From IMG/VR virus record IMGVR_UViG_2558309052_000002: DNA of 40,896 bases. One strand, 5' to 3'. Both the position numbers and the translations under genes were made by a program. Position 1 is the first letter of the stretch; each line of letters begins with the position of its first letter. Source of the DNA: a virus (Duplodnaviria > Heunggongvirae > Uroviricota > Caudoviricetes). Below the pieces are notes generated by a model, which had not been told where the DNA came from, made no database searches, and saw nothing but the letters and a program-made list of their open reading frames with translations. This document shows positions 1 to 15,711 of this stretch, piece after piece.

Positions 1-1284
1 ATGGAATCCCTAACGTTACAACCCATCGCTCGTGTCGATGGCACTATTAATCTGCCCGGTTCCAAGAGCGTTTCTAACCGCGCTTTATTGCTGGCGGCAT
101 TAGCACACGGCAAAACAGTATTAACCAATCTGCTGGATAGCGATGACGTGCGCCATATGCTGAATGCATTAACAGCGTTAGGGGTAAGCTATACGCTTTC
201 AGCCGATCGTACGCGTTGCGAAATTATCGGTAACGGTGGTCCATTACACGCAGAAAGTGCCCGGGAGTTGTTCCTCGGTAACGCCGGAACGGCAATGCGT
301 CCGCTGGCGGCAGCACTTTGCCTGGGTAGCAATGATATTGTACTGAGCGGTGAACCGCGAATGAAAGAACGCCCGATTGGTCATCTGGTGGATGCGCTGC
401 GCCAGGGCGGGGCGAAGATCACTTACCTGGAACAAGAAAATTATCCGCCATTGCGTTTACAGGGCGGCTTTACTGGCGGCAACGTTGATGTTGATGGCTC
501 CGTTTCCAGCCAGTTCCTCACCGCACTGTTAATGACTGCGCCTCTTGCGCCGGAAGATACGGTGATTCGTATTAAAGGCGATCTGGTTTCTAAACCTTAT
601 ATCGATATCACCCTCAATCTGATGAAGACGTTTGGTGTTGAAATTGAAAATCAGCACTATCAACAATTTGTCGTAAAAGGGGGGCAGTCTTACCAGTCTC
701 CGGGCACTTATTTGGTTGAAGGCGATGCATCTTCGGCTTCTTATTTCCTGGCAGCAGCAGCAATCAGAGGCGGCACTGTAAAAGTGACCGGCATTGGACG
801 CAACAGTATGCAGGGTGATATTCGCTTTGCTGATGTTCTGGAAAAAATGGGCGCGACCATTTGCTGGGGCGATGATTATATTTCCTGCACGCGTGGTGAA
901 CTGAACGCCATTGATATGGATATGAACCATATTCCCGATGCGGCGATGACCATTGCCACCGCGGCGTTATTTGCAAAAGGCACCACCACGCTGCGCAATA
1001 TCTATAACTGGCGTGTTAAAGAGACCGATCGCCTGTTTGCGATGGCAACAGAACTGCGTAAAGTCGGTGCGGAAGTCGAAGAGGGGCATGATTTCATTCG
1101 CATTACGCCACCGGAAAAACTGAAATTTGCTGAGATCGCCACTTATAATGATCACCGGATGGCGATGTGTTTCTCGCTGGTCGCATTATCAGATACGCCT
1201 GTGACGATTCTTGATCCAAAATGTACCGCTAAAACTTTTCCAGACTATTTCGAGCAATTGGCGCGGATAAGTCAACCCGGCTGA
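1..1284 (+). CDS. aroA: 3-phosphoshikimate 1-carboxyvinyltransferase (EPSP synthase)
   Basis: 427-aa ORF, near-identical over its full length to the enterobacterial AroA sequence as I recall it ([41 protein letters not shown]..., [13 protein letters not shown] motif). Complete start and stop in window. Confidence 0.97.
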
Positions 1285-1539: not shown

Positions 1540-2112
1540 TTACATTTCAGGTTGCGTTATGACAGTCCCAACAGGGTGATAGCGGTAGATCGTTGACAGT
1601 CCAATATCATAGATAATTGCCAGCCGCTTTCTGTCATACCCTTTCTGGAGCAATCTTGCGATCTGCTCATGCTGCTCCTTCGTCAGTTTCGGGCGACGTC
1701 CTCCAACTCTTCCTTGTGCTCGCGCAGCAGCCAGTCCAGCCAGCGTGCGCTCAACTATCAGTTCACGCTCCATTTCTGCCAGTGCACCCATCATATGAAA
1801 AAAGAACCTTCCCATCGGAGTGCTGGTATCGATTGAATCCGTCAGACTGCGAAAATTGACACCTTTTGCGCGTAGCTCTTCTGTGAGAGCAATGAGGTGT
1901 TTCATTCTTCTACCCAACCGATCCAGCTTCCAGACCACCAATGTATCCCCTCTTTTAAGGCACTTTAAAGCGCGTTTCAGGCCTGGTCGTTCCGACTTGG
2001 TTCCGCTCATTTTGTCCTCAAAAATCTGTTCACATCCTGCGCACATTAATGCATTGCGTTGCAAATCTGTGTTTTGGTCATTTGTTGACACACGTATGTA
2101 GCCAATCAGCAT
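1540..2112 (-). CDS. Gin/Pin/Hin-family serine DNA invertase
   Basis: 190-aa product from ATG at 2112 (RBS AGGGAG upstream): MLIGYIRVSTNDQNTDLQRNAL...GDTLVVWKLDRLGR...RSLTDSIDTSTPMGRFFFHMMGALAEMEREL..., co-linear with Mu Gin. The longer ORF in the track (to 2241) is an upstream frame extension. Confidence 0.93.
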   Translation of the reverse strand: MLIGYIRVSTNDQNTDLQRNALMCAGCEQIFEDKMSGTKSERPGLKRALKCLKRGDTLVVWKLDRLGRRMKHLIALTEELRAKGVNFRSLTDSIDTSTPMGRFFFHMMGALAEMERELIVERTLAGLAAARAQGRVGGRRPKLTKEQHEQIARLLQKGYDRKRLAIIYDIGLSTIYRYHPVGTVITQPEM

Positions 2113-2180
2113 TAAAAATACTCCCTTTTGAGTGGTTAAAGTACTGAGATAATGTGGGGAGGATTTGAGAGATAAACGTT

Positions 2181-2696
2181 GGTTTAGGAGAAGGCTCGGC
2201 GCTACCCGTTGGTGTGCCTGTTCCGTGGCCCACCGCCACACCGCCAGCAGGCTGGTTAAAGTGCGACGGGCGCGCCTTTACAAAAGAACAATATCCTGTT
2301 CTGGCCAGAGTCTACCCGACCCTCCGTCTTCCCGATTTACGCGGTGAGTTTATCCGTGGATGGGACGACGGGCGCAAAGTTGATACAGGACGTAAGTTGC
2401 TGTCCGCACAAGGGGCAACGCTGTTAAGAACAGCAATGCTGGATTATTATAACCAGGACACTACGGGAACCTCGGGGATAGTCGGCATGGGATTCAACAA
2501 TGAAGATTCCATTACAGACCTTCGTGAGGGCAGCTTTAAAATGCCGGACGGGACAACATTCAGCGATCCTGTCGTGGCAATGTCAGACAATGGTATGCAG
2601 GCTACTATTCTGACCTCTATCAGAAGCGGGTATGCGAAGGGTATCACTGTCAGACCCCGTAGCATTGCACTTAATTACATTGTGAGGGCAGTTTAA
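2181..2696 (+). CDS. alternative tail-fibre C-terminal variable cassette (A), currently silent
   Basis: Frame open from 2169 with no credible own start. Begins with the shared LGEGSALPVGVPVPWPTATPPAGWLKCDGRAFTKEQ block, then a unique region, ending ...RPRSIALNYIVRAV. Confidence 0.7.
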   Translation, partial: GLGEGSALPVGVPVPWPTATPPAGWLKCDGRAFTKEQYPVLARVYPTLRLPDLRGEFIRGWDDGRKVDTGRKLLSAQGATLLRTAMLDYYNQDTTGTSGIVGMGFNNEDSITDLREGSFKMPDGTTFSDPVVAMSDNGMQATILTSIRSGYAKGITVRPRSIALNYIVRAV

Positions 2697-3310
2697 TGAG
2701 TAACACTGCAGTTCTGGATGAAAACGGTATCGCCACTGTAGCGGGCGATATCACTGTATATCACTATGACGAGGAAACCCGGGAATACACCTCATCCTCT
2801 GTGGAGTATCTCGCCCTTGGGGTGGGTACTCCGGCACATTCGTGCGCCGATGCACCGCCGGAAGCAATTTCGGGTTACGTGGTTTGCCGGACTGCCACGC
2901 TGAACGGGTGGGAGCATGTGCCTGATCACCGCGGCGAGACGGTATACAGCACGGAGAACGGTAACCCCGTTCTGATTACCCAACCGGGTGATTACCCGGC
3001 GGACACCACCACAAAACAGCCAGCCACGCCATGGGATACCTGGAACGGTGAGGCGTGGGTAACCGATACTGAACGGCAGCGAGCCGCAGAACTGGAGGTT
3101 GCCAGACAGCAACGCCAGCAACGGGTGAAACAGGCGATGGCGTCCGTCGATCTTATCAACCTCAAACTGCGTGCTGGTCGCAGTCTGAAACCAGAAGAAA
3201 CGGCAAAACTGAACGCCGTGCTGGATTATATCGACGAGCTGAACGCACTGGATATCAGCAAGGCACCTGAAATCAGCTGGCCGGAAGCGCCACTGGCGCT
3301 TGCCGGCTGA
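2696..3310 (+). CDS. tail fibre assembly protein (chaperone) paired with cassette A
   Basis: 204 aa. ATG overlaps the cassette A stop (TAATG). Resembles phage tail-fibre assembly proteins (Mu U / P2 G type). Confidence 0.75.
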   Translation: MSNTAVLDENGIATVAGDITVYHYDEETREYTSSSVEYLALGVGTPAHSCADAPPEAISGYVVCRTATLNGWEHVPDHRGETVYSTENGNPVLITQPGDYPADTTTKQPATPWDTWNGEAWVTDTERQRAAELEVARQQRQQRVKQAMASVDLINLKLRAGRSLKPEETAKLNAVLDYIDELNALDISKAPEISWPEAPLALAG

Positions 3311-3316
3311 ACGGTA

Positions 3317-3778
3317 TCACGCCGCCCTCACGATATAGTTAAATGCGATATTGCGGGGGCGAGCTGATACATAAGCCCACCAGTCATATCTTTGTGCACC
3401 TTTAGAGGATGCATCAAATATCCACTTTTTGCCATTTAAGACCCCCAGTTGATTAGAGGTTAAAGCGTCACCAAATCCGTATTGTGTAGAGCCGAGCGAA
3501 CTGATATCTCCGGTATCATTATCATCAAAACCGGATACGATAGTCCCTTCCTGAAATGAAAGTAGCGCACGCCCGGTATCAACCTTGCGACCACCGTCCC
3601 ATCCACGGATAAACTCACCGCGCAAATCGGGAAGACGGAGGGTCGGGTAGACTCTGACCAGAACAGGATATTGTTCTTTGGTGAACGTAGCTCCGTTGCA
3701 CTGTAACCAGCCTGCTGGCGGTGTGGCGGTGGGCCATGGAACCGGTACACCAACAGGCAATGCAGAGCCTTCCCCCAA
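3317..3778 (-). CDS. alternative tail-fibre C-terminal variable cassette (B), silent, no ATG
   Basis: 153-codon frame beginning TTG-GGG-GAA (LGEGSALPVG...) 10 nt after the expressed fibre stop; ends ...RPRNIAFNYIVRAA. Diverged homology block (about 85% to A/C). No downstream assembly gene. Confidence 0.6.
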   Translation of the reverse strand: MGEGSALPVGVPVPWPTATPPAGWLQCNGATFTKEQYPVLVRVYPTLRLPDLRGEFIRGWDGGRKVDTGRALLSFQEGTIVSGFDDNDTGDISSLGSTQYGFGDALTSNQLGVLNGKKWIFDASSKGAQRYDWWAYVSARPRNIAFNYIVRAA

Positions 3779-3788
3779 ACCAACGTTT

Positions 3789-5042
3789 CTATGCCGCCCT
3801 TACGATGTAATTAAACGCAATGTTACGGGGACGAATGGTCACATAATTAACCCCATCGCCTCGCGAAGGACCTGCAAATGAAAAACGGGAGAATCCAGGT
3901 TGGTTGTCAACGATTTGGTCATAGTTATTGATTGAATGACCAGACCCAATGTCAAAATTACCTGCGTAATGAGAAAAACTTGTACCATCCTGCCGTGAAA
4001 GCAGATCGCGCCCTGTATCCACTTTTCGCCCGTCGTCCCATCCACGGATAAACTCACCGCGTAAATCGGGAAGACGGAGGGTCGGGTAGACTCTGGCCAG
4101 AACAGGATATTGTTCTTTTGTAAAGGCGCGCCCGTCGCACTTTAACCAGCCTGCTGGCGGTGTGGCAGTGGGCCACGGAACAGGTACACCAACGGGCAGC
4201 GCCGAGCCTTCCCCCAAACCAAGGTAATTGAGGACATCTTTTATACTGCCCTTAGCGATAATAGCGCGACCAATAGCTGTAAGGGTTGCCAGCTCTGCGC
4301 GGTCTGCTCCGGTAAAATAAGGCAACCGATCTGCTGCAGTGGCAAGTCCTGCCAGAGCAGTGAGCGTGGCATCTGCCGGTTGTTTTCCGTTTGCCAGATC
4401 GTATGCAGCCTTGACCGCTTTCGGTGTGGCGGCCAGTATTTCAGACGTGCTGTTGATGGCACTGCTCAATTGTACGGTGCCTTTTGCCGTCAGCGAGGCA
4501 GCAGGCACTCCCGTTATCTGACTCCACGGGTGAGTGTGGCTGACGGGCGCCTTGCCGGCTGCAAGGTCGTATGCAGCCTTGACCGCCTTCGGCGTGGCAG
4601 CCTCAGTTTCTGATTGACTGTCCGTGGCGCTGCTCAGTTGTACGGTGCCTTTTGCCGTCAGTGAAGCCGCAGGCACTCCCGTTATCTGACTCCACGGGTG
4701 AGTGTGGCTGGCAGGCGCCTTGCCGGCTGCCAGGTCGTATGCAGCCTTGACCGCTTTTGGTGTGGCGGCCAGCGTTTCAGAGGTGCTGTTGGTGGCACTG
4801 CTCAGTTGGGTGAACCCCTTAGCTGTCAGTGTCGCGTCCGGGTGGTTACGGGAACGTACGTGTTCAGCCAGTGACTGTGCGGCTTCCTCCGTTTTCTTCT
4901 TCAGCCATTTCGTCCTGTTTGCCAGTTGCCGGGGGGCTCGATTTGATATCCCGTCTGCACCACCCAGAACCGGATCTGATGTCTCCAGTTGATAGATATT
5001 TTCTTCCCACTTTTCTGTTTCATTCAGGTTTCCCATAATCAA
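3789..5042 (-). CDS. tail fibre protein (constant N-terminal part fused to variable cassette C)
   Basis: 417 aa. ATGA overlap with the upstream gpI-like gene; internal 56-aa tail-fibre repeats; C-terminal 140 aa is homology block C plus a unique tip ending ...NIAFNYIVRAA. Confidence 0.9.
   Translation of the reverse strand: MIMGNLNETEKWEENIYQLETSDPVLGGADGISNRAPRQLANRTKWLKKKTEEAAQSLAEHVRSRNHPDATLTAKGFTQLSSATNSTSETLAATPKAVKAAYDLAAGKAPASHTHPWSQITGVPAASLTAKGTVQLSSATDSQSETEAATPKAVKAAYDLAAGKAPVSHTHPWSQITGVPAASLTAKGTVQLSSAINSTSEILAATPKAVKAAYDLANGKQPADATLTALAGLATAADRLPYFTGADRAELATLTAIGRAIIAKGSIKDVLNYLGLGEGSALPVGVPVPWPTATPPAGWLKCDGRAFTKEQYPVLARVYPTLRLPDLRGEFIRGWDDGRKVDTGRDLLSRQDGTSFSHYAGNFDIGSGHSINNYDQIVDNQPGFSRFSFAGPSRGDGVNYVTIRPRNIAFNYIVRAA
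4388..4829 (-). repeat. in-frame tandem repeats (168 bp, about 2.6 copies) inside the tail fibre gene
   Basis: Protein repeat LTAKG(F/T)(T/V)QLSSA.(N/D)S.SE..AATPKAVKAAYDLA.GKAP.SHTHPWSQITGVPAAS occurs twice in full and once in part. Shadow ORFs on + at 4393 and 4729 (336 nt apart) share ARSYAALTAFGVAAS. Confidence 0.85.
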
Positions 5043-8853: not shown

Positions 8854-9056
8854 GGGGCAATATCCTCTTCTGTACGGGCTTCTTCAGCCTCAATCACCGG
8901 GATCAGTAACAACAGCCCGGAGGGCAGCACCGGCGTGATGGCCACGTGCGGATTGGCGGCAATAATCCGGGGATAGCCCAGCGGGTCACCGTAGTACTGC
9001 CATGCCAGCGAATCCCAGCGCTCTCCGTCACGGGTAACATGTTCAAGAAACATCAC
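8841..9056 (-). CDS. tail protein X-like (small LysM-like tail protein)
   Basis: 71 aa (MMFLEHVTRDGERWDSLAWQYYGDP...); size, sequence character and position immediately upstream of the gpD-like gene. Confidence 0.65.
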   Translation of the reverse strand: MMFLEHVTRDGERWDSLAWQYYGDPLGYPRIIAANPHVAITPVLPSGLLLLIPVIEAEEARTEEDIAPWLR

Positions 9057-9937
9057 ACACTCCTCGTCAGTATTCTGGCGGCCATTGCACTTAATCCCGG
9101 AGACATGCGGTTGAATGCTGTGCCGACGGCGTTAAGCTGCCCGGAAACGGTATCCAGAGCACCTGCAATATTTCTTTTGTCCACACCACTCAGCGCAGAC
9201 TGTGCCTGCTGTACATACGTGGCTGCTTCGCTGGCTGTTCTGGCCAGACTGATGGCATCGGGCATGGATTCAGAGAGTGCGTTAAACGCCGGAACACTTT
9301 TCCCCAGAGCCCCGGAGATATTACCCAGTCCGCTCATCAGCCCCGGCACACGGGTCAGTGCGACAACGGGGTTATCCTTCATTTTCTGTGTCACCCGAAC
9401 GGCGCTGATAGTGGTCTGGAGTACAGACTGCGCCTGTTTCGCATAGTTGACGCCGTTGCGGATGAACTGCGCCACCCCTGAAGGTGAAGGTATGGCACCG
9501 GAGACCGCCCCGACACCCGGGAGCTTCGTGCGTATTGCCGGTGGTTGCAGAGGATTTTTCGGGTCACCGGTGTATTCCCGGAGAGACACGGTGGCACTGA
9601 CAGCCAGCACGTTGCCGGTACTGTCAGTCTGCTCGCTGGTTGCAGTCACATCGGTGATCACGAACCAGCCGCGATAGTCACCGTTGCCGAAGACCAGCGC
9701 CAGTGCCTGATGGGCTTTCATGGCTGTTCGCAGTCTCGCCAGCTCCACATCGGGTACACAATAATGCTGATGGAAAACCAGAGTTATCTGGATTTCGTCC
9801 AGCCTGTCGCCGACGAACTGCAGACCAGGCTTACCCCCGATGCGGGCATGCTCCGCATAATCGACGCCGAACGTGGCCTCGAAGCCGTCCCAGTAGGTAA
9901 TCAGCTCAAACTCAATATCACCCAGTACGGCAAACAT
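9053..9937 (-). CDS. tail protein (P2 gpU-like / Mu gpN-like position)
   Basis: 294 aa directly downstream of the tape measure gene; assignment is by gene order only. Confidence 0.5.
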   Translation of the reverse strand: MFAVLGDIEFELITYWDGFEATFGVDYAEHARIGGKPGLQFVGDRLDEIQITLVFHQHYCVPDVELARLRTAMKAHQALALVFGNGDYRGWFVITDVTATSEQTDSTGNVLAVSATVSLREYTGDPKNPLQPPAIRTKLPGVGAVSGAIPSPSGVAQFIRNGVNYAKQAQSVLQTTISAVRVTQKMKDNPVVALTRVPGLMSGLGNISGALGKSVPAFNALSESMPDAISLARTASEAATYVQQAQSALSGVDKRNIAGALDTVSGQLNAVGTAFNRMSPGLSAMAARILTRSV

Positions 9938-12888
9938 CAGCGGTACTCCTTACGTTGTTTCTGAGCCAGCAGACGCTCCAGCATTTTTTCCAGCTCATGC
10001 AGACTCATATTCAGGGCACCAGTCAGTCCTGCAGGCGCTGTGGTTTCCCTGCCATTGAGGAAAAACTGAGGATTAAAGCTGACCTGGATACCACCAGACG
10101 TTCCACCGCCGGTTGCAGCTGCACCACGGCCTGAATATCCGGCAGCCAGGATTTCAGGCGAGGGGATACGGGGAACATCCGGTGTCATCTCATTTGCCAG
10201 ACGTTGCCCTGGTAAAATCGATGCCCGGGTGGAGAGCGGAATAGCGGGCATGGAAGACAAACTATTGATTACGGCTCCGATCGCATTTTTAGCAGACGAC
10301 ATAAACCCATTGATATCGGGCAACGGCATACTGAAGCGAACACCTGAAGTGTTATCCCGTATTTCTGGCCCCTGAATGCTCACGGGCATTCTGGGGAGCA
10401 GTTCACTGGCCATTCGCTGCCCGGCCAGAGCTGCAAGCGGAGTGGTCCGCTGCAGGCCAATGGCGGCCCCCTGCGCGATATTGTCACCAAAGCCCATAAA
10501 CACGCGGCTCGGCGAATGAATGCCCAGCTTTTCGCTGAACCAGCCACTGATGCTGTCGCCCATTCCGGTTACACTGGATTTGAGCGACTCCCATTTGTTT
10601 TTGATACCGTTAATCAGACCATCGACAAGATGGCCACCGAAGTCGGTAAACTTTGCCGGCAGATCAACACCAAGATATTTCAGCGCAGCTGCAAAGGCTT
10701 TATAGAGCAGACCTGCCGGCGACCAGTTAATCAGCAGCTTACCAGTTCCCGCGATACCGCCGTTAAAGGCTTCCTGAATGTCAGCCCAGCATTGTTTAAA
10801 CCAGCTACTGATGCTGTCACCCATTCCGGTTACACTGGATTTGAGCGACCCCCATTTGTTTTTGATACCGTTAATCAAACCGTCGATAAGATGGCCACCG
10901 AAGTCGGTGAACTTTGCCGGCAGAGTAACGCCGAAATATTTCAGCGCAGCCGCAAAGGCTTTATAGAGCAGGCCTGCCGGCGACCAGTTAATCAGCAGCT
11001 TACCAGTTCCCGCGATACCGCCGTTAAAGGCTTCCTGAATGTCAGCCCAGCGCTGTTTAAACCAGCCACTGACTGCCCCCCAGTTGCGGTAGATAAGGTA
11101 AGCTGCTGCCGCGACAGCGGTGATAACGAGACCGATGGGATTCATCATCAGCGCTCGCCCAATCCAGAGAACGGCACGTGCAGCGCTCATAAAACCGCGA
11201 ACGAGGCTGCCCGCCAGAACTTTGCTGAGTTTCAGTCCTCCGCTGGTCAGTCGGCTGAATCCAGTGACAAGCCAGCGTAATTTGCCACCTTCTCCGAGTG
11301 CGGTAGTCAGTCGATGCCAGTTGGTCCGGAGTAAAACAGCAGTTTTCCAGACGTTCACAAAGGGGGAAATAAGGAGATTCAGCCCCAGTTTGAGACCAAC
11401 AGTCGCTATCTTAATCGCAAGGAGCGCACTGATGAGCTTAAAAGCCCCACTGACAAATTGCGGGTGAGTCGCCACCCAGTGTTTTGTCCCCTGAATGAGT
11501 GGGAGCAAGTCCTGAGTCAGAGAAATAAAAGATGGAGCTAATTGATCGCCCAGCGTAATTGCCAGATCGCGACTGCTGACCATAAGTGTTTTAGTGGCTT
11601 CAAGGGGAGATTTCAGCCGCTGATCATAAGCACTGGCAAGCAAATCGTTATCCGCAGCCCTGAGAGCACCGGCACGGATCTCTCGATATCTGTCCATGTT
11701 GGCCAGCATCGGGCGGATAAATGCCATGACCTGCATATCCGCGAACATATCGCCCAGACCAAAGTTTTTCGCCAGAGCCTGAAGTGCCTCATCTCTTGCC
11801 GTATCATTCTTTATTTTCATGGCTGATTTGAAGCCGGCCAGCGCTTCGGGGCTTTTGGCATTGAGGTAACGTTCTATAACACTCAACATCCCTTCAATCG
11901 GAGAGATCCCCGCAGCTTTATAACTCGCAATAGATCCCTGCAAATCAATACCCAGATCAGCAAACTGTTTCTGAGTATCGCGGGCAAAAATTTTGGTAAG
12001 AAAGTTTTTAAAATTATTGGCTGCTTCGTCGGTGGAACCTGCACCGATTTTTGCTATCTGGAGACTGGCCCCGATTTCAGCAACAGCCTCTTTTCCACTG
12101 GCAATACCCGCCATCATTGGGGCCAGGGACTGCATCCACTTGACCTGATCCGGGATTTCAAATGACCCCTGGTCACCGGCATAAGCCATAATATTCTGAA
12201 CGGCACCAAAATCTCTGGCCGCGCCTTTCAGGGAGTTTTGCCAGACTGCGGCCACTTTTGCCCAGTCCTGAGCAGACGTGCGTGTTGCCGTTGCCGCGCG
12301 GGCAATATCCGGCATCAGAAAACCGATATCTGACACATTATCAATATTGTCGCTGATGAGTGAACCCATCGCCTCCTGCAGCTCATCCTGATACTGATTG
12401 TATTTAAGCGCCCAGCCTTTTATCTGTCCGGCAAGTGCATCCCGCGTTTTATTGTCATATTTTGCGGTGATCGACATATCAATCATTTTGTCCTGAAAAG
12501 ACATGGACTGCTGAACGGCAGGGGAAACCGTATGATAAACAGTCTGTGCCATGCCATACGCTTCAATCCCCTGACCATACAGCGCCATGCGGTTAGCTTT
12601 CAGCGCATCACTGGTAGCGGATGCCGCTGACAGACGGCGCTGCTGGCGCTCAATTTGCTCCATGGTGCGGCTTACCCGCAGCAGCTCGCTGTTGAGATGC
12701 TGCATCCGGGAAGAACCCAGTTGACCATAACGTTCTGTTGCACGGGTTAAAGCGTTCTGACGTTCCTGCAGGCGGCGTGAGGTATCGCTCAGGGAATCAA
12801 GCGCACGGCGGGTACCGCTCATTGCAGAACGGAATGTGCTGCCAATCATCCCGCCGATAACAACGCCGACTGAAAACTGTCCCGACAT
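9937..12888 (-). CDS. tail tape measure protein
   Basis: 983 aa, alpha-helical and Gly/Ala-rich, downstream of the frameshifted tail chaperone; RBS GGAGG before the ATG at 12888; contains an internal 86-aa tandem duplication. Confidence 0.9.
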   Translation of the reverse strand: MSGQFSVGVVIGGMIGSTFRSAMSGTRRALDSLSDTSRRLQERQNALTRATERYGQLGSSRMQHLNSELLRVSRTMEQIERQQRRLSAASATSDALKANRMALYGQGIEAYGMAQTVYHTVSPAVQQSMSFQDKMIDMSITAKYDNKTRDALAGQIKGWALKYNQYQDELQEAMGSLISDNIDNVSDIGFLMPDIARAATATRTSAQDWAKVAAVWQNSLKGAARDFGAVQNIMAYAGDQGSFEIPDQVKWMQSLAPMMAGIASGKEAVAEIGASLQIAKIGAGSTDEAANNFKNFLTKIFARDTQKQFADLGIDLQGSIASYKAAGISPIEGMLSVIERYLNAKSPEALAGFKSAMKIKNDTARDEALQALAKNFGLGDMFADMQVMAFIRPMLANMDRYREIRAGALRAADNDLLASAYDQRLKSPLEATKTLMVSSRDLAITLGDQLAPSFISLTQDLLPLIQGTKHWVATHPQFVSGAFKLISALLAIKIATVGLKLGLNLLISPFVNVWKTAVLLRTNWHRLTTALGEGGKLRWLVTGFSRLTSGGLKLSKVLAGSLVRGFMSAARAVLWIGRALMMNPIGLVITAVAAAAYLIYRNWGAVSGWFKQRWADIQEAFNGGIAGTGKLLINWSPAGLLYKAFAAALKYFGVTLPAKFTDFGGHLIDGLINGIKNKWGSLKSSVTGMGDSISSWFKQCWADIQEAFNGGIAGTGKLLINWSPAGLLYKAFAAALKYLGVDLPAKFTDFGGHLVDGLINGIKNKWESLKSSVTGMGDSISGWFSEKLGIHSPSRVFMGFGDNIAQGAAIGLQRTTPLAALAGQRMASELLPRMPVSIQGPEIRDNTSGVRFSMPLPDINGFMSSAKNAIGAVINSLSSMPAIPLSTRASILPGQRLANEMTPDVPRIPSPEILAAGYSGRGAAATGGGTSGGIQVSFNPQFFLNGRETTAPAGLTGALNMSLHELEKMLERLLAQKQRKEYR
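10538..11053 (-). repeat. 258-bp perfect-frame tandem duplication inside the tape measure gene
   Basis: Two consecutive near-identical 258-bp units (10538-10795, 10796-11053) plus the start of a third. Protein shows WADIQEAFNGGIAGTGKLLINWSPAGLLYKAFAAALKY...GIKNKW.SLKSSVTGMGDSIS twice; near-identical shadow ORFs on + at 10520 and 10778. Confidence 0.9.
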
Positions 12889-12963: not shown

Positions 12964-13381
12964 CTATGATTTGTCGCCGTACTCGCTTTTGATTTGCTCT
13001 TCAGCCTGCTCCAGCCACATCTCCAGATCGTCAGTATCGAGGGCATCAATCTCCCCCGGCTGAAACCGGAACCATCTCGCCAGCAGCCCCTGCGCCTGCG
13101 TCAGCGCCCTGGTTGCTCTCACCCATCCCCGTGATGAGCTGAAATCGTTTCTGTAACTGCAGGTAATCAGCCAGATCCATATTGTCGAGATCCTCCGGGA
13201 GAAGACCAGTACTGCGGGCAATCAGCGGTTCGTCCCAGTCTGCCGGGTTTTTGCTGATTTTGCGCACCTGCTTCAGGTCTTTTACCGTCAGGCGTTTCAG
13301 TTCAACCAGCTCAATTCTGGTGCCTGCAGCAGTGGTGAAGGGATAAGACAATTTAAAAGTATCGGATGGGGTCTGTGACAT
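12964..13381 (-). CDS. tail assembly chaperone, frameshift-extended form
   Basis: A second frame (stop at 12964) overlaps the 3' end of the chaperone ORF in a +1/-2 relationship. A G5 run (13053-13057) lies 5 nt before the zero-frame stop. Predicted fusion ...MVPVSAG/EIDALDTDDLEMWLEQAEEQIKSEYGDKS. Confidence 0.55.
13046..13381 (-). CDS. tail assembly chaperone (P2 gpE-like / Mu gp41-like)
   Basis: 111 aa, acidic C-terminal region; RBS AGGAG before the ATG at 13381; immediately upstream of the tape measure gene. Confidence 0.75.
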   Translation of the reverse strand: MSQTPSDTFKLSYPFTTAAGTRIELVELKRLTVKDLKQVRKISKNPADWDEPLIARSTGLLPEDLDNMDLADYLQLQKRFQLITGMGESNQGADAGAGAAGEMVPVSAGGD

Positions 13382-13762: not shown

Positions 13763-14284
13763 TCAGCCCCCGATATTGATACGGTAGTCAGTCAGTTGAT
13801 CAACACCGCCGACCCGGAAGATGTTGGCCAGATAGTCCAGTTGCAGCAGCTCTTCACCATCCAGTACCTGTCTGATATACGTGCAGGTGAAGCTACTGGA
13901 GAACTCGGCGTTCTCGTGCTGTTTGAACGTCCCCAGCGGGTTCTTCTTGAACATAATCGTCAGGAAGGTGACCAGCGGGATTTCGTCAATCAGCCCCTGC
14001 GAGCTGTAGCGCTGGACGCTGGAACGACACTGCAGTGCCAGCGACCTGTACGGGTTCGCGGCAGACAGCATCGCATCGCGGTAAAAGCTGTTCCATTTGA
14101 TTTCGCCTTCCAGTTTGTCAAAACCAGCCGGGAGTTCCACCTTACCCACCATCCCCAGCGCCTTGTGTTCCTGCATAATCATGGAGACATCGGGGAGTTT
14201 AACTTCCTCAGCCCGTCCCAGCAGGTTAGTACCATCCAGATAGATGTTGGCATTCGTGATGCGGTTTATCTCAATCTTTGACAT
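13763..14284 (-). CDS. tail tube protein (Mu M / P2 FII-like)
   Basis: 173 aa directly downstream of the sheath gene, start overlapping the sheath stop. Confidence 0.85.
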   Translation of the reverse strand: MSKIEINRITNANIYLDGTNLLGRAEEVKLPDVSMIMQEHKALGMVGKVELPAGFDKLEGEIKWNSFYRDAMLSAANPYRSLALQCRSSVQRYSSQGLIDEIPLVTFLTIMFKKNPLGTFKQHENAEFSSSFTCTYIRQVLDGEELLQLDYLANIFRVGGVDQLTDYRINIGG

Positions 14285-15711
14285 CAGTTGCCCCCTTTCA
14301 GGGTTAACAGGTATTCCGAGGTGATCTCAGTCTCAAACGTCAGTCGCTCCAGCGGCGGTGGTGGCGTATATTTGTAGCTCAGCAACAGGTGCCCGGCGGC
14401 CAGCTCCGTCTCCGGATTGCGGGCCGGATCAAACCAGCAACGGAAGCCCAGTACCGCACCATCACCAGTCATTTTGCGACCGTAGGCGTTGACCGACTCC
14501 GTCAGTGCATCAATCAGCGCCTGAGTAATCGGCATGTCGATGTACTGCTGGCTGAAATAACGAATGGACTCGTTGATCACATCACCGGTGCGGCGAACGT
14601 TCTCAAAGTTACGCATATGGGTGACCGTTGGCCATGCTGCCGTCCGGTTACCCCACAGACGAAGGCCGCTGCCGTAACTGCTGAATACCGTGGTGATCCC
14701 CTGTTCGTTAAGCAGGTTCACCTCACTCTGCGGGTCATCAATCATCGCGGACAGCTGGCGCTCCACGCCGGTGATCCCCAGAATCTCCTGATTGGAGGAT
14801 GACCACCAGTAGCCCTTGTCCAGATCGACTCTGGCACGCAGACCTGCTGCACGCTGGCTGAGCGGCTCCAGACGCTCTGTGTTTGTCACCGGGTCATATA
14901 CCTTCACATGCGGATAGCACAGACGGACGCGGTCGGAGCTGGTATTGAAGTTGATGGTGCCTTCCGGGCCACGACCTGCCAGAGCCTGTGCAAAGGTGGT
15001 ACCGACAGGCGCATCAATGTAGGTTACCGCGCCCAGCTTCTCTGCCATGGCGATAAGCTCAACTGCGACACTCTTCTGGGTGCAGAACACCGGCGCAATC
15101 AGAATTTTGGCGAAATAGCCGTACAGGTTGAAGCTGTCGTTAAGCAGCTTCATGCCGGTTCGGTTTCCGGCGCTGTTCACCCCGCCGATGATGTCCGCCG
15201 CAGTCACCTTCGACGGGTCCGCGTACTCATAGCTCACCTTCACGCTGCCACCGGCCTCAATAGCCTTGCCCAGGTTCGTGAGCACACCCGCCTGCGCATC
15301 AACACGGTAGTCCGTGTTCGCCGTGTGGGTGGTGCTGCCTTCACTGTTTTTCACCACCACATTAGCGACAACCGGATGCGCCAGTCTGGCCTGCCCTGTC
15401 GATTTGTCAAAGGTAACCACCTCATCCTCGATCGCCGTTTTATGTTTCGCCGGGTCGAGGACGTTAATGACCAGAACGGTGCCTGCACCATGGTCATAAA
15501 TCGCATCCAGCGCCTGCGGAATGGTAAAGCCGGTGAACTGGCTGCCAAATGCCGCTGCGTCTTTCTCAGACAGGCACTGTACCAGCGTATTGACATCCCC
15601 CATCGGGGCGGTACCAATCAGGCCAATAACGGCAGATTTCACCGTTTTAACCGGGCGGGCACCGTTTTCCACCTCAATGGTTTCGGGACCATGCAGATAG
15701 TTAGCTGCCAT
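14284..15711 (-). CDS. contractile tail sheath protein (Mu L / P2 FI-like)
   Basis: 475 aa; characteristic size and sequence character of sheath proteins; followed by the tube gene. Confidence 0.9.
   Translation of the reverse strand: MAANYLHGPETIEVENGARPVKTVKSAVIGLIGTAPMGDVNTLVQCLSEKDAAAFGSQFTGFTIPQALDAIYDHGAGTVLVINVLDPAKHKTAIEDEVVTFDKSTGQARLAHPVVANVVVKNSEGSTTHTANTDYRVDAQAGVLTNLGKAIEAGGSVKVSYEYADPSKVTAADIIGGVNSAGNRTGMKLLNDSFNLYGYFAKILIAPVFCTQKSVAVELIAMAEKLGAVTYIDAPVGTTFAQALAGRGPEGTINFNTSSDRVRLCYPHVKVYDPVTNTERLEPLSQRAAGLRARVDLDKGYWWSSSNQEILGITGVERQLSAMIDDPQSEVNLLNEQGITTVFSSYGSGLRLWGNRTAAWPTVTHMRNFENVRRTGDVINESIRYFSQQYIDMPITQALIDALTESVNAYGRKMTGDGAVLGFRCWFDPARNPETELAAGHLLLSYKYTPPPPLERLTFETEITSEYLLTLKGGN

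Follow-up and report, generated by a model that had tools for sequence, protein, structure and literature searches.

Among the closest described counterparts of the locus examined here are tape measure proteins (TMPs) whose length was altered by design. In-frame deletions and duplications were reportedly engineered in lambda gpH by Katsura and Hendrix in 1984, in T4 gp29 by Abuladze et al. in 1994, and in the TMP of TP901-1 by Pedersen in 2000 and by Mahony in 2016 (PMC5099701). The present analysis concerns the TMP gene of a Mu-like Escherichia coli prophage contained in a 40,896-nt viral DNA record (IMGVR_UViG_2558309052_000002), the whole of which is referred to as the window. As in the engineered lambda gpH, T4 gp29, and TP901-1 proteins, the TMP changes length in frame while the tail module is otherwise constant, and a scaling of ∼0.15 nm per residue is expected. 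Unlike the engineered proteins, the locus presents a natural series of one, two, or three units in one wild E. coli prophage type, apparently generated by inter-repeat recombination. The gene contains a copy-variable module of 87 codons (261 bp), and we consider probable the history of gain and loss and the predicted effect on tail length that are set out below.

Coding minisatellites, also termed variable number tandem repeats, change over time through gene conversion and crossovers between misaligned copies. The TMP locus shares with them its head-to-tail units, copy polymorphism, reciprocal chimeras, and partial homogenization, but differs in the tiny range of copies (one to three) and in the length of its units, both of which are under purifying selection as protein.

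Natural TMP repeats with an aromatic periodicity of 11/18 residues have been described (Belcaid et al. 2011, PMC3271669), including in TP901-1 (PMC5099701) and in the Staphylococcus aureus phage SA3821 (PMC8616913), and the TP901-1 study proposed that repeats are 'natural facilitators of domain duplication/deletion' (PMC5099701). In those systems as in the present one, gain or loss of units alters the length of the protein. In contrast, the unit described here is 87 residues long, the spacing of its aromatic residues (W/F) is irregular (7, 14, 10, 7, 8, 3, 16, 17), and the phage that harbors it is a myovirus. No 11/18-residue aromatic periodicity was detected within the unit, in which short-period self-similarity never rose above the shuffle control, and it is therefore not a Belcaid-type repeat. 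A 2026 survey found tandem repeats to be typically absent from myovirus TMPs (PMC13585406). The element in the window resembles BcepMu and KS10 (Bcepmuvirus) in its DDE transposase, its Mu-type head module, and its sheath-tube-chaperone-TMP gene order. However, the KS10 TMP consists of 811 residues with no tandem duplication reported (PMC2628397); relative to KS10, the E. coli lineage has one 71-residue segment and one to two extra 87-residue units added. Literature searches on phage PhiKM, on a Mu-like prophage of sequence type 131 (ST131), and on TMP copy-number polymorphism yielded no publication that deals with this prophage.

Tandem repeat in the tape measure gene

A single strong tandem array, far above the chance level, occupies positions 10538-11072 of the window. 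Tandem Repeats Finder assigns it a period of 261, 2.0 copies, 93% matches, no indels, and a score of 958. An offset scan over 700 positions gave 364 matches at offset 261; the remaining offsets between 250 and 269, 258 included, each gave 145-193. A first-pass annotation had placed a 258-bp (86-codon) tandem duplication at 10538-11053, followed by a third unit that begins but diverges. The in-frame repeat is present, but its period is 261 bp, or 87 codons, and the two full units end at 11059; what was read as the start of a third unit is merely a 13-bp direct repeat, TCAGTGGCTGGTT, at the edge of the array. The units lie head to tail within the sole long open reading frame that crosses the repeat, the 2952-bp TMP gene (Table 1), and the duplication keeps the reading frame, as the annotation had stated.

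The identification of the gene as a TMP likewise holds. Its product scores 74.6 bits for PF10145, the cutoff of which is 33.2, and the gene lies between that of a gpE-type chaperone and those of gpU/X/D. Matches to the PHROG tape measure families phrog_28 (E=1e-135) and phrog_5690 (E=1e-297) agree with the RefSeq entry in JJ1887, 'phage tail tape measure protein' (WP_000016538.1).

Between the two units there are 16 nucleotide differences in 261 (93.9% identity) and 6 residue differences in 87; of the 14 codons affected, eight differ synonymously. Each unit is bordered by the 13-bp direct repeat. A stretch of 79 nt is identical between the units and is likely to serve as a crossover substrate and also as a point of collapse in short-read assemblies. 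A plus-strand antisense reading frame over the repeat (10516-11280, 254 residues) was considered as a gene; none of its Pfam hits reaches the threshold, RefSeq does not annotate it, and it is most likely spurious.

Copy number among relatives

The TMP genes of 17 related loci were set in register with that of the window, leaving out the gapped PhiKM record. All 18 alleles are uninterrupted open reading frames, and they fall into classes by length. A single unit is present in TMPs of 821/825 residues (L007-L010 and L019, including Klebsiella phage KP12), which are also without a separate 71-residue segment, and in TMPs of 896 residues (L002, L013, L017). Two units are present in the 983-residue proteins of the window, L011, and L018, and three in the 1070-residue proteins of L003-L006 and L014-L016. 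The two-unit arrangement is thus not universal among relatives, which is what the first-pass annotation had named as grounds for its refutation, and copy number differs between the window and L013/L017 although their flanks are 100% identical. The same 896-, 983-, and 1070-residue classes were recovered in a search of 5.8 billion proteins; no four-unit allele was found in the best 120 protein clusters, which include no 1157-residue class, or in the sampled genomes. The sheath and tube accessions, WP_000729834.1 and WP_162832341.1, are constant across the one-, two-, and three-unit prophages examined.

Approximately 370 complete E. coli genomes, many of them ST131, carry the 2952-bp gene with an identity of at least 99%. 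Each row listed for this class shows one 2952-bp piece with 100% identity, and the two-unit arrangement of the window is therefore not an assembly artefact. The frequencies of the classes are estimates rather than a census, drawn from two evenly spaced, overlapping samples of the ∼633-635 matching complete genomes. Classes were called from record spans and piece counts, the figure of '>=80% coverage' being unsuitable because overlapping pieces are joined in it. The 60-row sample contained 42 two-unit, 11 three-unit, and six one-unit genes, and the 40-row sample contained 26, nine, and four, respectively, which over 100 rows corresponds to ∼68% with two units, ∼20% with three, and ∼10% with one. 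An apparent mosaic boundary at nt 2351 of the gene was rejected as an artefact of how BLAST reports pieces of three-unit alleles, whose C-terminal 606 nt are near-identical to those of the window.

Several observations concern the annotation of these genes and other changes in their length. Four of the three-unit TMP genes (L004, L005, L006, L015) are intact at 3213 bp with a terminal stop only, yet the Prokaryotic Genome Annotation Pipeline (PGAP) represents each as two partial pseudogenes. The 71-residue segment that is absent from the 821/825-residue class is present in the 896-, 983-, and 1070-residue TMPs. Its first ∼22 residues resemble those of the segment that follows (GQRMASELLPRMP... 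versus GQRLANEMTPDVP...), and self-similarity at offset 71 scores 47, whereas shuffled sequence reaches 39 at most; the segment may represent a second, older length-increasing event in the gene. Two further, rare variants each come from a single contig and may be real or mis-assembled: P0006 (1084 residues) has an in-frame duplication of 101 residues that covers the hydrophobic segment together with the first part of unit 1, and P0053 (995 residues) has a 12-residue duplication, GDSISSWFKQCW, at the unit junction.

The module in distant tape measure proteins

Searched on its own against 1.84 billion representative proteins, the 87-residue unit matched 591 clusters at E<=1e-3. The best 150 of these clusters include 90 full-length TMPs, defined as having at least 700 residues. 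A single matched stretch is present in 43 of the 90, whereas the other 47 carry two (29 proteins), three (14), four (3), or five (1). Extra copies are nearly always in tandem in the 21 proteins inspected. Arrays of whole units have periods of 76 residues (P0122, four copies), 83, 87 (P0124), and 105-114 residues, while half-unit arrays repeat either the N-terminal half, with a period of 42-43, or the C-terminal half, with a period of 44-50. The arrays of distant TMPs stop just before a conserved KLGIHSPSRVF motif, beside which the C-terminal half of the module is conserved across many TMP families. The duplication in the window is thus one young case of an amplification that recurs across this TMP superfamily.

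Predicted effect on tail length

The ruler principle is already well known, and the locus introduces no new mechanism. Sheath rings rise by about 4 nm in T4 and pyocin tails. At 0.15-0.17 nm per residue, each unit is predicted to lengthen the tail by ∼13-15 nm, which at that ring rise would amount to ∼3-4 tube/sheath rings, and tail length probably varies naturally among prophages with one, two, and three units. With 0.15 nm per residue, the corresponding tails would measure roughly 134, 147, and 160 nm; the ratio of KS10, a Mu-like myovirus with a tail of ∼140 nm (PMC2628397), would give roughly 155, 170, and 185 nm. In phiCbK, 295 nm was predicted from a TMP of 1964 residues and 300 nm was measured (PMC3556154). 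In TP901-1, with a wild-type tail of 118 nm, deletions in either the repeat or the hydrophobic regions give tails whose shortening is roughly proportional to the size of the TMP (PMC5099701). The ruler rule has also been ascribed to T4 gp29 in a contractile tail (Abuladze 1994, as cited in PMC13585406). The ∼13 nm of additional tail predicted in the first-pass annotation depends on published relations of this kind between TMP and tail length.

The module stands after the hydrophobic segments of the TMP, and this placement, together with the conservation of its C-terminal half beside KLGIHSPSRVF, would also suit a functional module that is no segment of the ruler. It could, for instance, bind a chaperone, form a compact or looped-out domain, or act in the membrane or as a channel after ejection, and extra copies would then alter injection and not tail length. 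AlphaFold2 renders the full TMP, from a shallow alignment, as mostly helical with a mean predicted local distance difference test (pLDDT) score of 32, a very low confidence, and each unit is predicted as helix-loop-helix-loop-helix rather than as one long helix, which would fit the same reading. A sequence search of the Protein Data Bank for a solved TMP homologue returned nothing usable (best E=0.15). Such a role outside the ruler is unlikely given the proportional shortening in TP901-1 and the tracking of tail length by TMP length in the myoviruses T4 and KS10; moreover, distant TMPs tolerate one to five copies, as a spacer would.

The variation could also be real but inconsequential, with copy number drifting neutrally in a defective prophage or in a dispensable module. 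No induction or microscopy data for the prophage were found in the literature, and the tail-fibre region of JJ1887 is annotated as partly pseudogenized. Neutral drift is nevertheless quite unlikely, as 18 of 18 TMP alleles are intact, the full Mu-like gene set is present, and a phage isolate, PhiKM, carries a TMP gene of 99.3% identity. Both units are also kept under purifying selection about as strong as that on the remainder of the gene: the ratio of nonsynonymous to synonymous divergence (dN/dS) is ∼0.2-0.25 for the unit pairs of the window and L011, and ∼0.23 for the 1824-nt upstream flank compared between allele clades.

Age and turnover of the units

At the nucleotide level, the units sort into two paralog types, A (the first unit) and B (the last). 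Across alleles, A units differ from one another at 0-8 nt and B units at 0-4 nt, whereas A differs from B at 12-20 nt; orthologous units are thus 0-8 nt apart and paralogous units 12-20 nt, and within an array the units are no nearer to one another than they are to orthologous units. Fifteen diagnostic sites part A from B. The single units of the 821/825-residue outgroups, which show 26-38 differences in 261 nt to either unit, carry 6-7 A-states and 7-8 B-states, a near-even mixture from which it follows that both paralogs diverged from a common ancestor. Two allele clades, ∼70 of 1824 nt apart, are distinguished by their flanks, with one-, two-, and three-unit forms in each. Synonymous divergence (dS) is 0.13-0.19 between units, ∼0.10 between clades, and 0.36-0.55 to the 821-residue class. 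The divergence between units equals or exceeds the deepest split among the alleles, which argues that the primary duplication predates the diversification of the prophage's alleles and is old rather than recent.

The first-pass annotation had read the low divergence as suggesting a recent event, and for the primary duplication this is not supported. A recent, lineage-private duplication by slippage, with one-unit relatives as the un-duplicated ancestor, would fit the 93.9% identity of the units and the existence of one-unit alleles (L013, L017) with flanks identical to those of the window. It is very improbable and largely refuted, however, by the occurrence of types A and B in both clades and by a dS between units that is not below that between clades. 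In addition, the one-unit alleles of the lineage itself are chimeras (A5'/B3') with B-specific derived states, and so derive from two-unit arrays, while the genuine single-unit relatives are the distant 821/825-residue outgroups. The 896-residue alleles examined are therefore secondary deletion products and not ancestors.

The arrangement of the types points to repeated changes in copy number after the first duplication. L011 and L018 have the canonical two-unit order A-B. Among the three-unit alleles, L003, L005, and L015 are A-A-B, with the first two units 0-1 nt apart, and L004, L006, L014, and L016 are A-(B5'/A3')-B, with a chimeric middle unit; L016 has an additional conversion tract in its last unit. 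The single unit is A5'/B3' in L013/L017 as well as in L002, with distinct crossover intervals (nt 14-47 and nt 94-113), that of L013/L017 falling within the 79-nt identical stretch. The B5'/A3' middle units and the A5'/B3' single units are the reciprocal products expected from unequal crossover of misaligned A-B arrays. The earlier suggestion of a rearrangement-prone site is well supported by these chimeric units at predicted crossover points and from close relatives with one, two, or three units.

In the window, unit 2 is B-type at 15 of 15 diagnostic sites. Unit 1 has the pattern ABBBBBAAAAAAAAA, being mostly A with a B-type tract at sites 48-67, and almost equals the middle unit of the three-unit allele L014. 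The 79-nt identity between the two units is due to this tract, as is, in part, their close similarity.

Assembly collapse or over-expansion of the 261-bp repeat is a most improbable source of the copy-number differences: although in the PhiKM record the TMP is interrupted by a sequencing gap of 100 Ns that coincides exactly with the repeat, one-unit clusters from draft assemblies include multi-switch mosaics, the units share the 79-nt identical stretch, and PGAP mis-calls three-unit genes as pseudogenes, the two-unit gene recurs in complete genomes from many laboratories, three-unit alleles make up about one-fifth of the sampled complete genomes and have several distinct, consistent middle units that collapse cannot create, and the one-unit allele L002 lies on a diverged flank background with another crossover point.

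Our preferred history, in which a copy-variable ruler module is repeatedly gained and lost, begins with an ancestral single unit that would have been bordered by short direct repeats containing TGGTT and encoding W-F at each edge. The 821/825-residue outgroup alleles have a weaker edge repeat around their single unit, with 8-13 of 13 positions in common and a TGGTT core. It is plausible that the edge repeat seeded the first duplication. A single duplication before the split of the two allele clades would have produced units A (5') and B (3'), and the 261-bp repeats may then have undergone unequal homologous recombination or slippage during replication, together with gene conversion. Three-unit and one-unit alleles would have been produced repeatedly, with the units partly homogenized. 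The window allele would be a two-unit form whose unit 1 owes its B-type tract either to gene conversion or to a two-to-three-to-two cycle, through the chimeric middle unit of a three-unit allele.

A few points weigh against this account. The alleles are known here from their sequences and not from particles, and the sequences cannot separate unequal crossover from replication slippage. Recombination between clades could have spread types A and B, inflating the apparent age of the duplication. The three helices with loops that AlphaFold2 shows for each unit, at a pLDDT of 32, do not allow the rise per residue to be read. Finally, some one-unit alleles may be artefacts of short-read collapse: several one-unit clusters of proteins from draft assemblies, such as P0054 and P0078, switch more than once between window units 1 and 2; P0103, the largest draft one-unit cluster (435 contigs), is a clean chimera with its junction in the 79-nt stretch; and the ST131-type one-unit allele is present in only three complete genomes. 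The two-unit and three-unit states and the one-unit allele of L002 are independent of this caveat.

Tail module, host element, and other features of the window

The coordinates of the features are collected in Table 1. On the minus strand, the genes follow the order sheath, tube, gpE-type chaperone, TMP, and the homologues of gpU, gpX, gpD, gpV, and gpW. The tail is of the P2-type contractile kind, which the first-pass annotation did not mention. In relatives, an overlapping GpE-family frame is annotated beside the chaperone gene.

Table 1. Coordinates of the repeat, the tail genes, and other features in the window.
Feature	Coordinates	Strand	Details
Tape measure protein gene	9937-12888	minus	983 residues; PF10145
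Repeat unit 1	10804-11064	minus	residues 609-695; 5' unit of the gene; translation WFKQRWADIQ...DSISS
Repeat unit 2	10543-10803	minus	residues 696-782; translation WFKQCWADIQ...DSISG
13-bp direct repeat TCAGTGGCTGGTT	11060-11072	minus	5' edge of unit 1; encodes S-G-W-F
13-bp direct repeat TCAGTGGCTGGTT	10799-10811	minus	unit junction; one mismatch
13-bp direct repeat TCAGTGGCTGGTT	10538-10550	minus	3' edge of the array, continuing into unique downstream sequence
79-nt identical stretch, unit 1	10973-11051	minus	identical to 10712-10790 of unit 2; holds the B-type conversion tract (diagnostic sites 10998-11017)
KLGIHSPSRVF motif	10498-10530	minus	just 3' of the array
71-residue segment	10210-10422	minus	TMP residues ∼823-893
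gpU-like tail protein	9053-9937	minus	directly 3' of the TMP gene; PF06995, 132.5 bits
gpE-type tail assembly chaperone	13046-13381	minus	5' of the TMP gene; PF10109, 74.8 bits
Tail tube gene	13763-14284	minus	PF04985, PF04984, PF17482 matches across tube and sheath genes
Tail sheath gene	14284-15711	minus	PF04985, PF04984, PF17482 matches across tube and sheath genes
Tail-fibre reading frame	3789-5042	minus	
Tail-fibre tandem units	4384-4887	minus	three units of 168 bp (56 residues)
Tail-fibre cassette	1540-4225		
Cassette inverted repeats	2176-2404 and 3997-4225		229 nt, 94%
Further inverted repeat	3558-3788		86% to 2176-2404
Collar-domain C-terminus	2214-2696	plus	
Alternative Collar-domain C-terminus	3317-3778	minus	
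Fibre assembly gene	2696-3310		
Serine invertase	1540-2241	minus	Resolvase and HTH_7
aroA	1-1284		at the start of the window

The region identical to the window in JJ1887 is annotated in RefSeq as part of a complete Mu-like transposable prophage adjoining aroA, which contains a DDE transposase, a DUF935 portal, Mu F/G-type head genes, a lysis module, and an invertase beside tail-fibre cassettes. The nearest phage record is that of Escherichia phage PhiKM (PQ738613, L001), classified as Bcepmuvirus, and the host element of the TMP gene is a Mu-like (Bcepmuvirus-type) E. coli prophage. The window itself starts with aroA, and in JJ1887 the prophage lies next to aroA-serC. Matching TMP genes occur at widely different record coordinates across genomes; as the records start at different points, this is no proof of different insertion sites.

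The tail-fibre genes contain repeats of their own. Three tandem units within the tail-fibre reading frame, at 100, 84, and 61% identity, correspond to three Pfam Phage_fiber_2 repeats, which are followed by a Collar domain. In the tail-fibre cassette, inverted repeats flank alternative Collar-domain C-termini and a fibre assembly gene, with a serine invertase beside them. The cassette looks like an invertible host-range switch similar to the G segment of Mu.

Significance

The repeat is a trap in public assemblies, in which it gives rise to gaps, possible collapses, and false pseudogene calls. The module is recurrently amplified in distant TMPs, though tandem repeats in myovirus TMPs are reported to be uncommon. 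A wider proposal, doubtful at present, is that this NWSP module of 87 residues might be a quantal ruler unit, amplified and lost recurrently in the TMPs of many proteobacterial phages, with copy number switching fast between one and three under selection, tail length evolving rapidly as a result, and each unit spanning a near-integer number of sheath rings. If this were true, the thickness of the host capsule or O-antigen layer would be a possible selective agent for tail length.

The control of tail length by the tape measure has been established mainly from engineered mutants, whereas the locus described here provides a natural series in an E. coli prophage that is widespread and clinically important. 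Because its TMPs of 896, 983, and 1070 residues are accompanied by identical sheath and tube accessions, the ruler rule could be tested directly on a contractile tail, including how a non-integer increment of the ruler is rounded to whole sheath rings.

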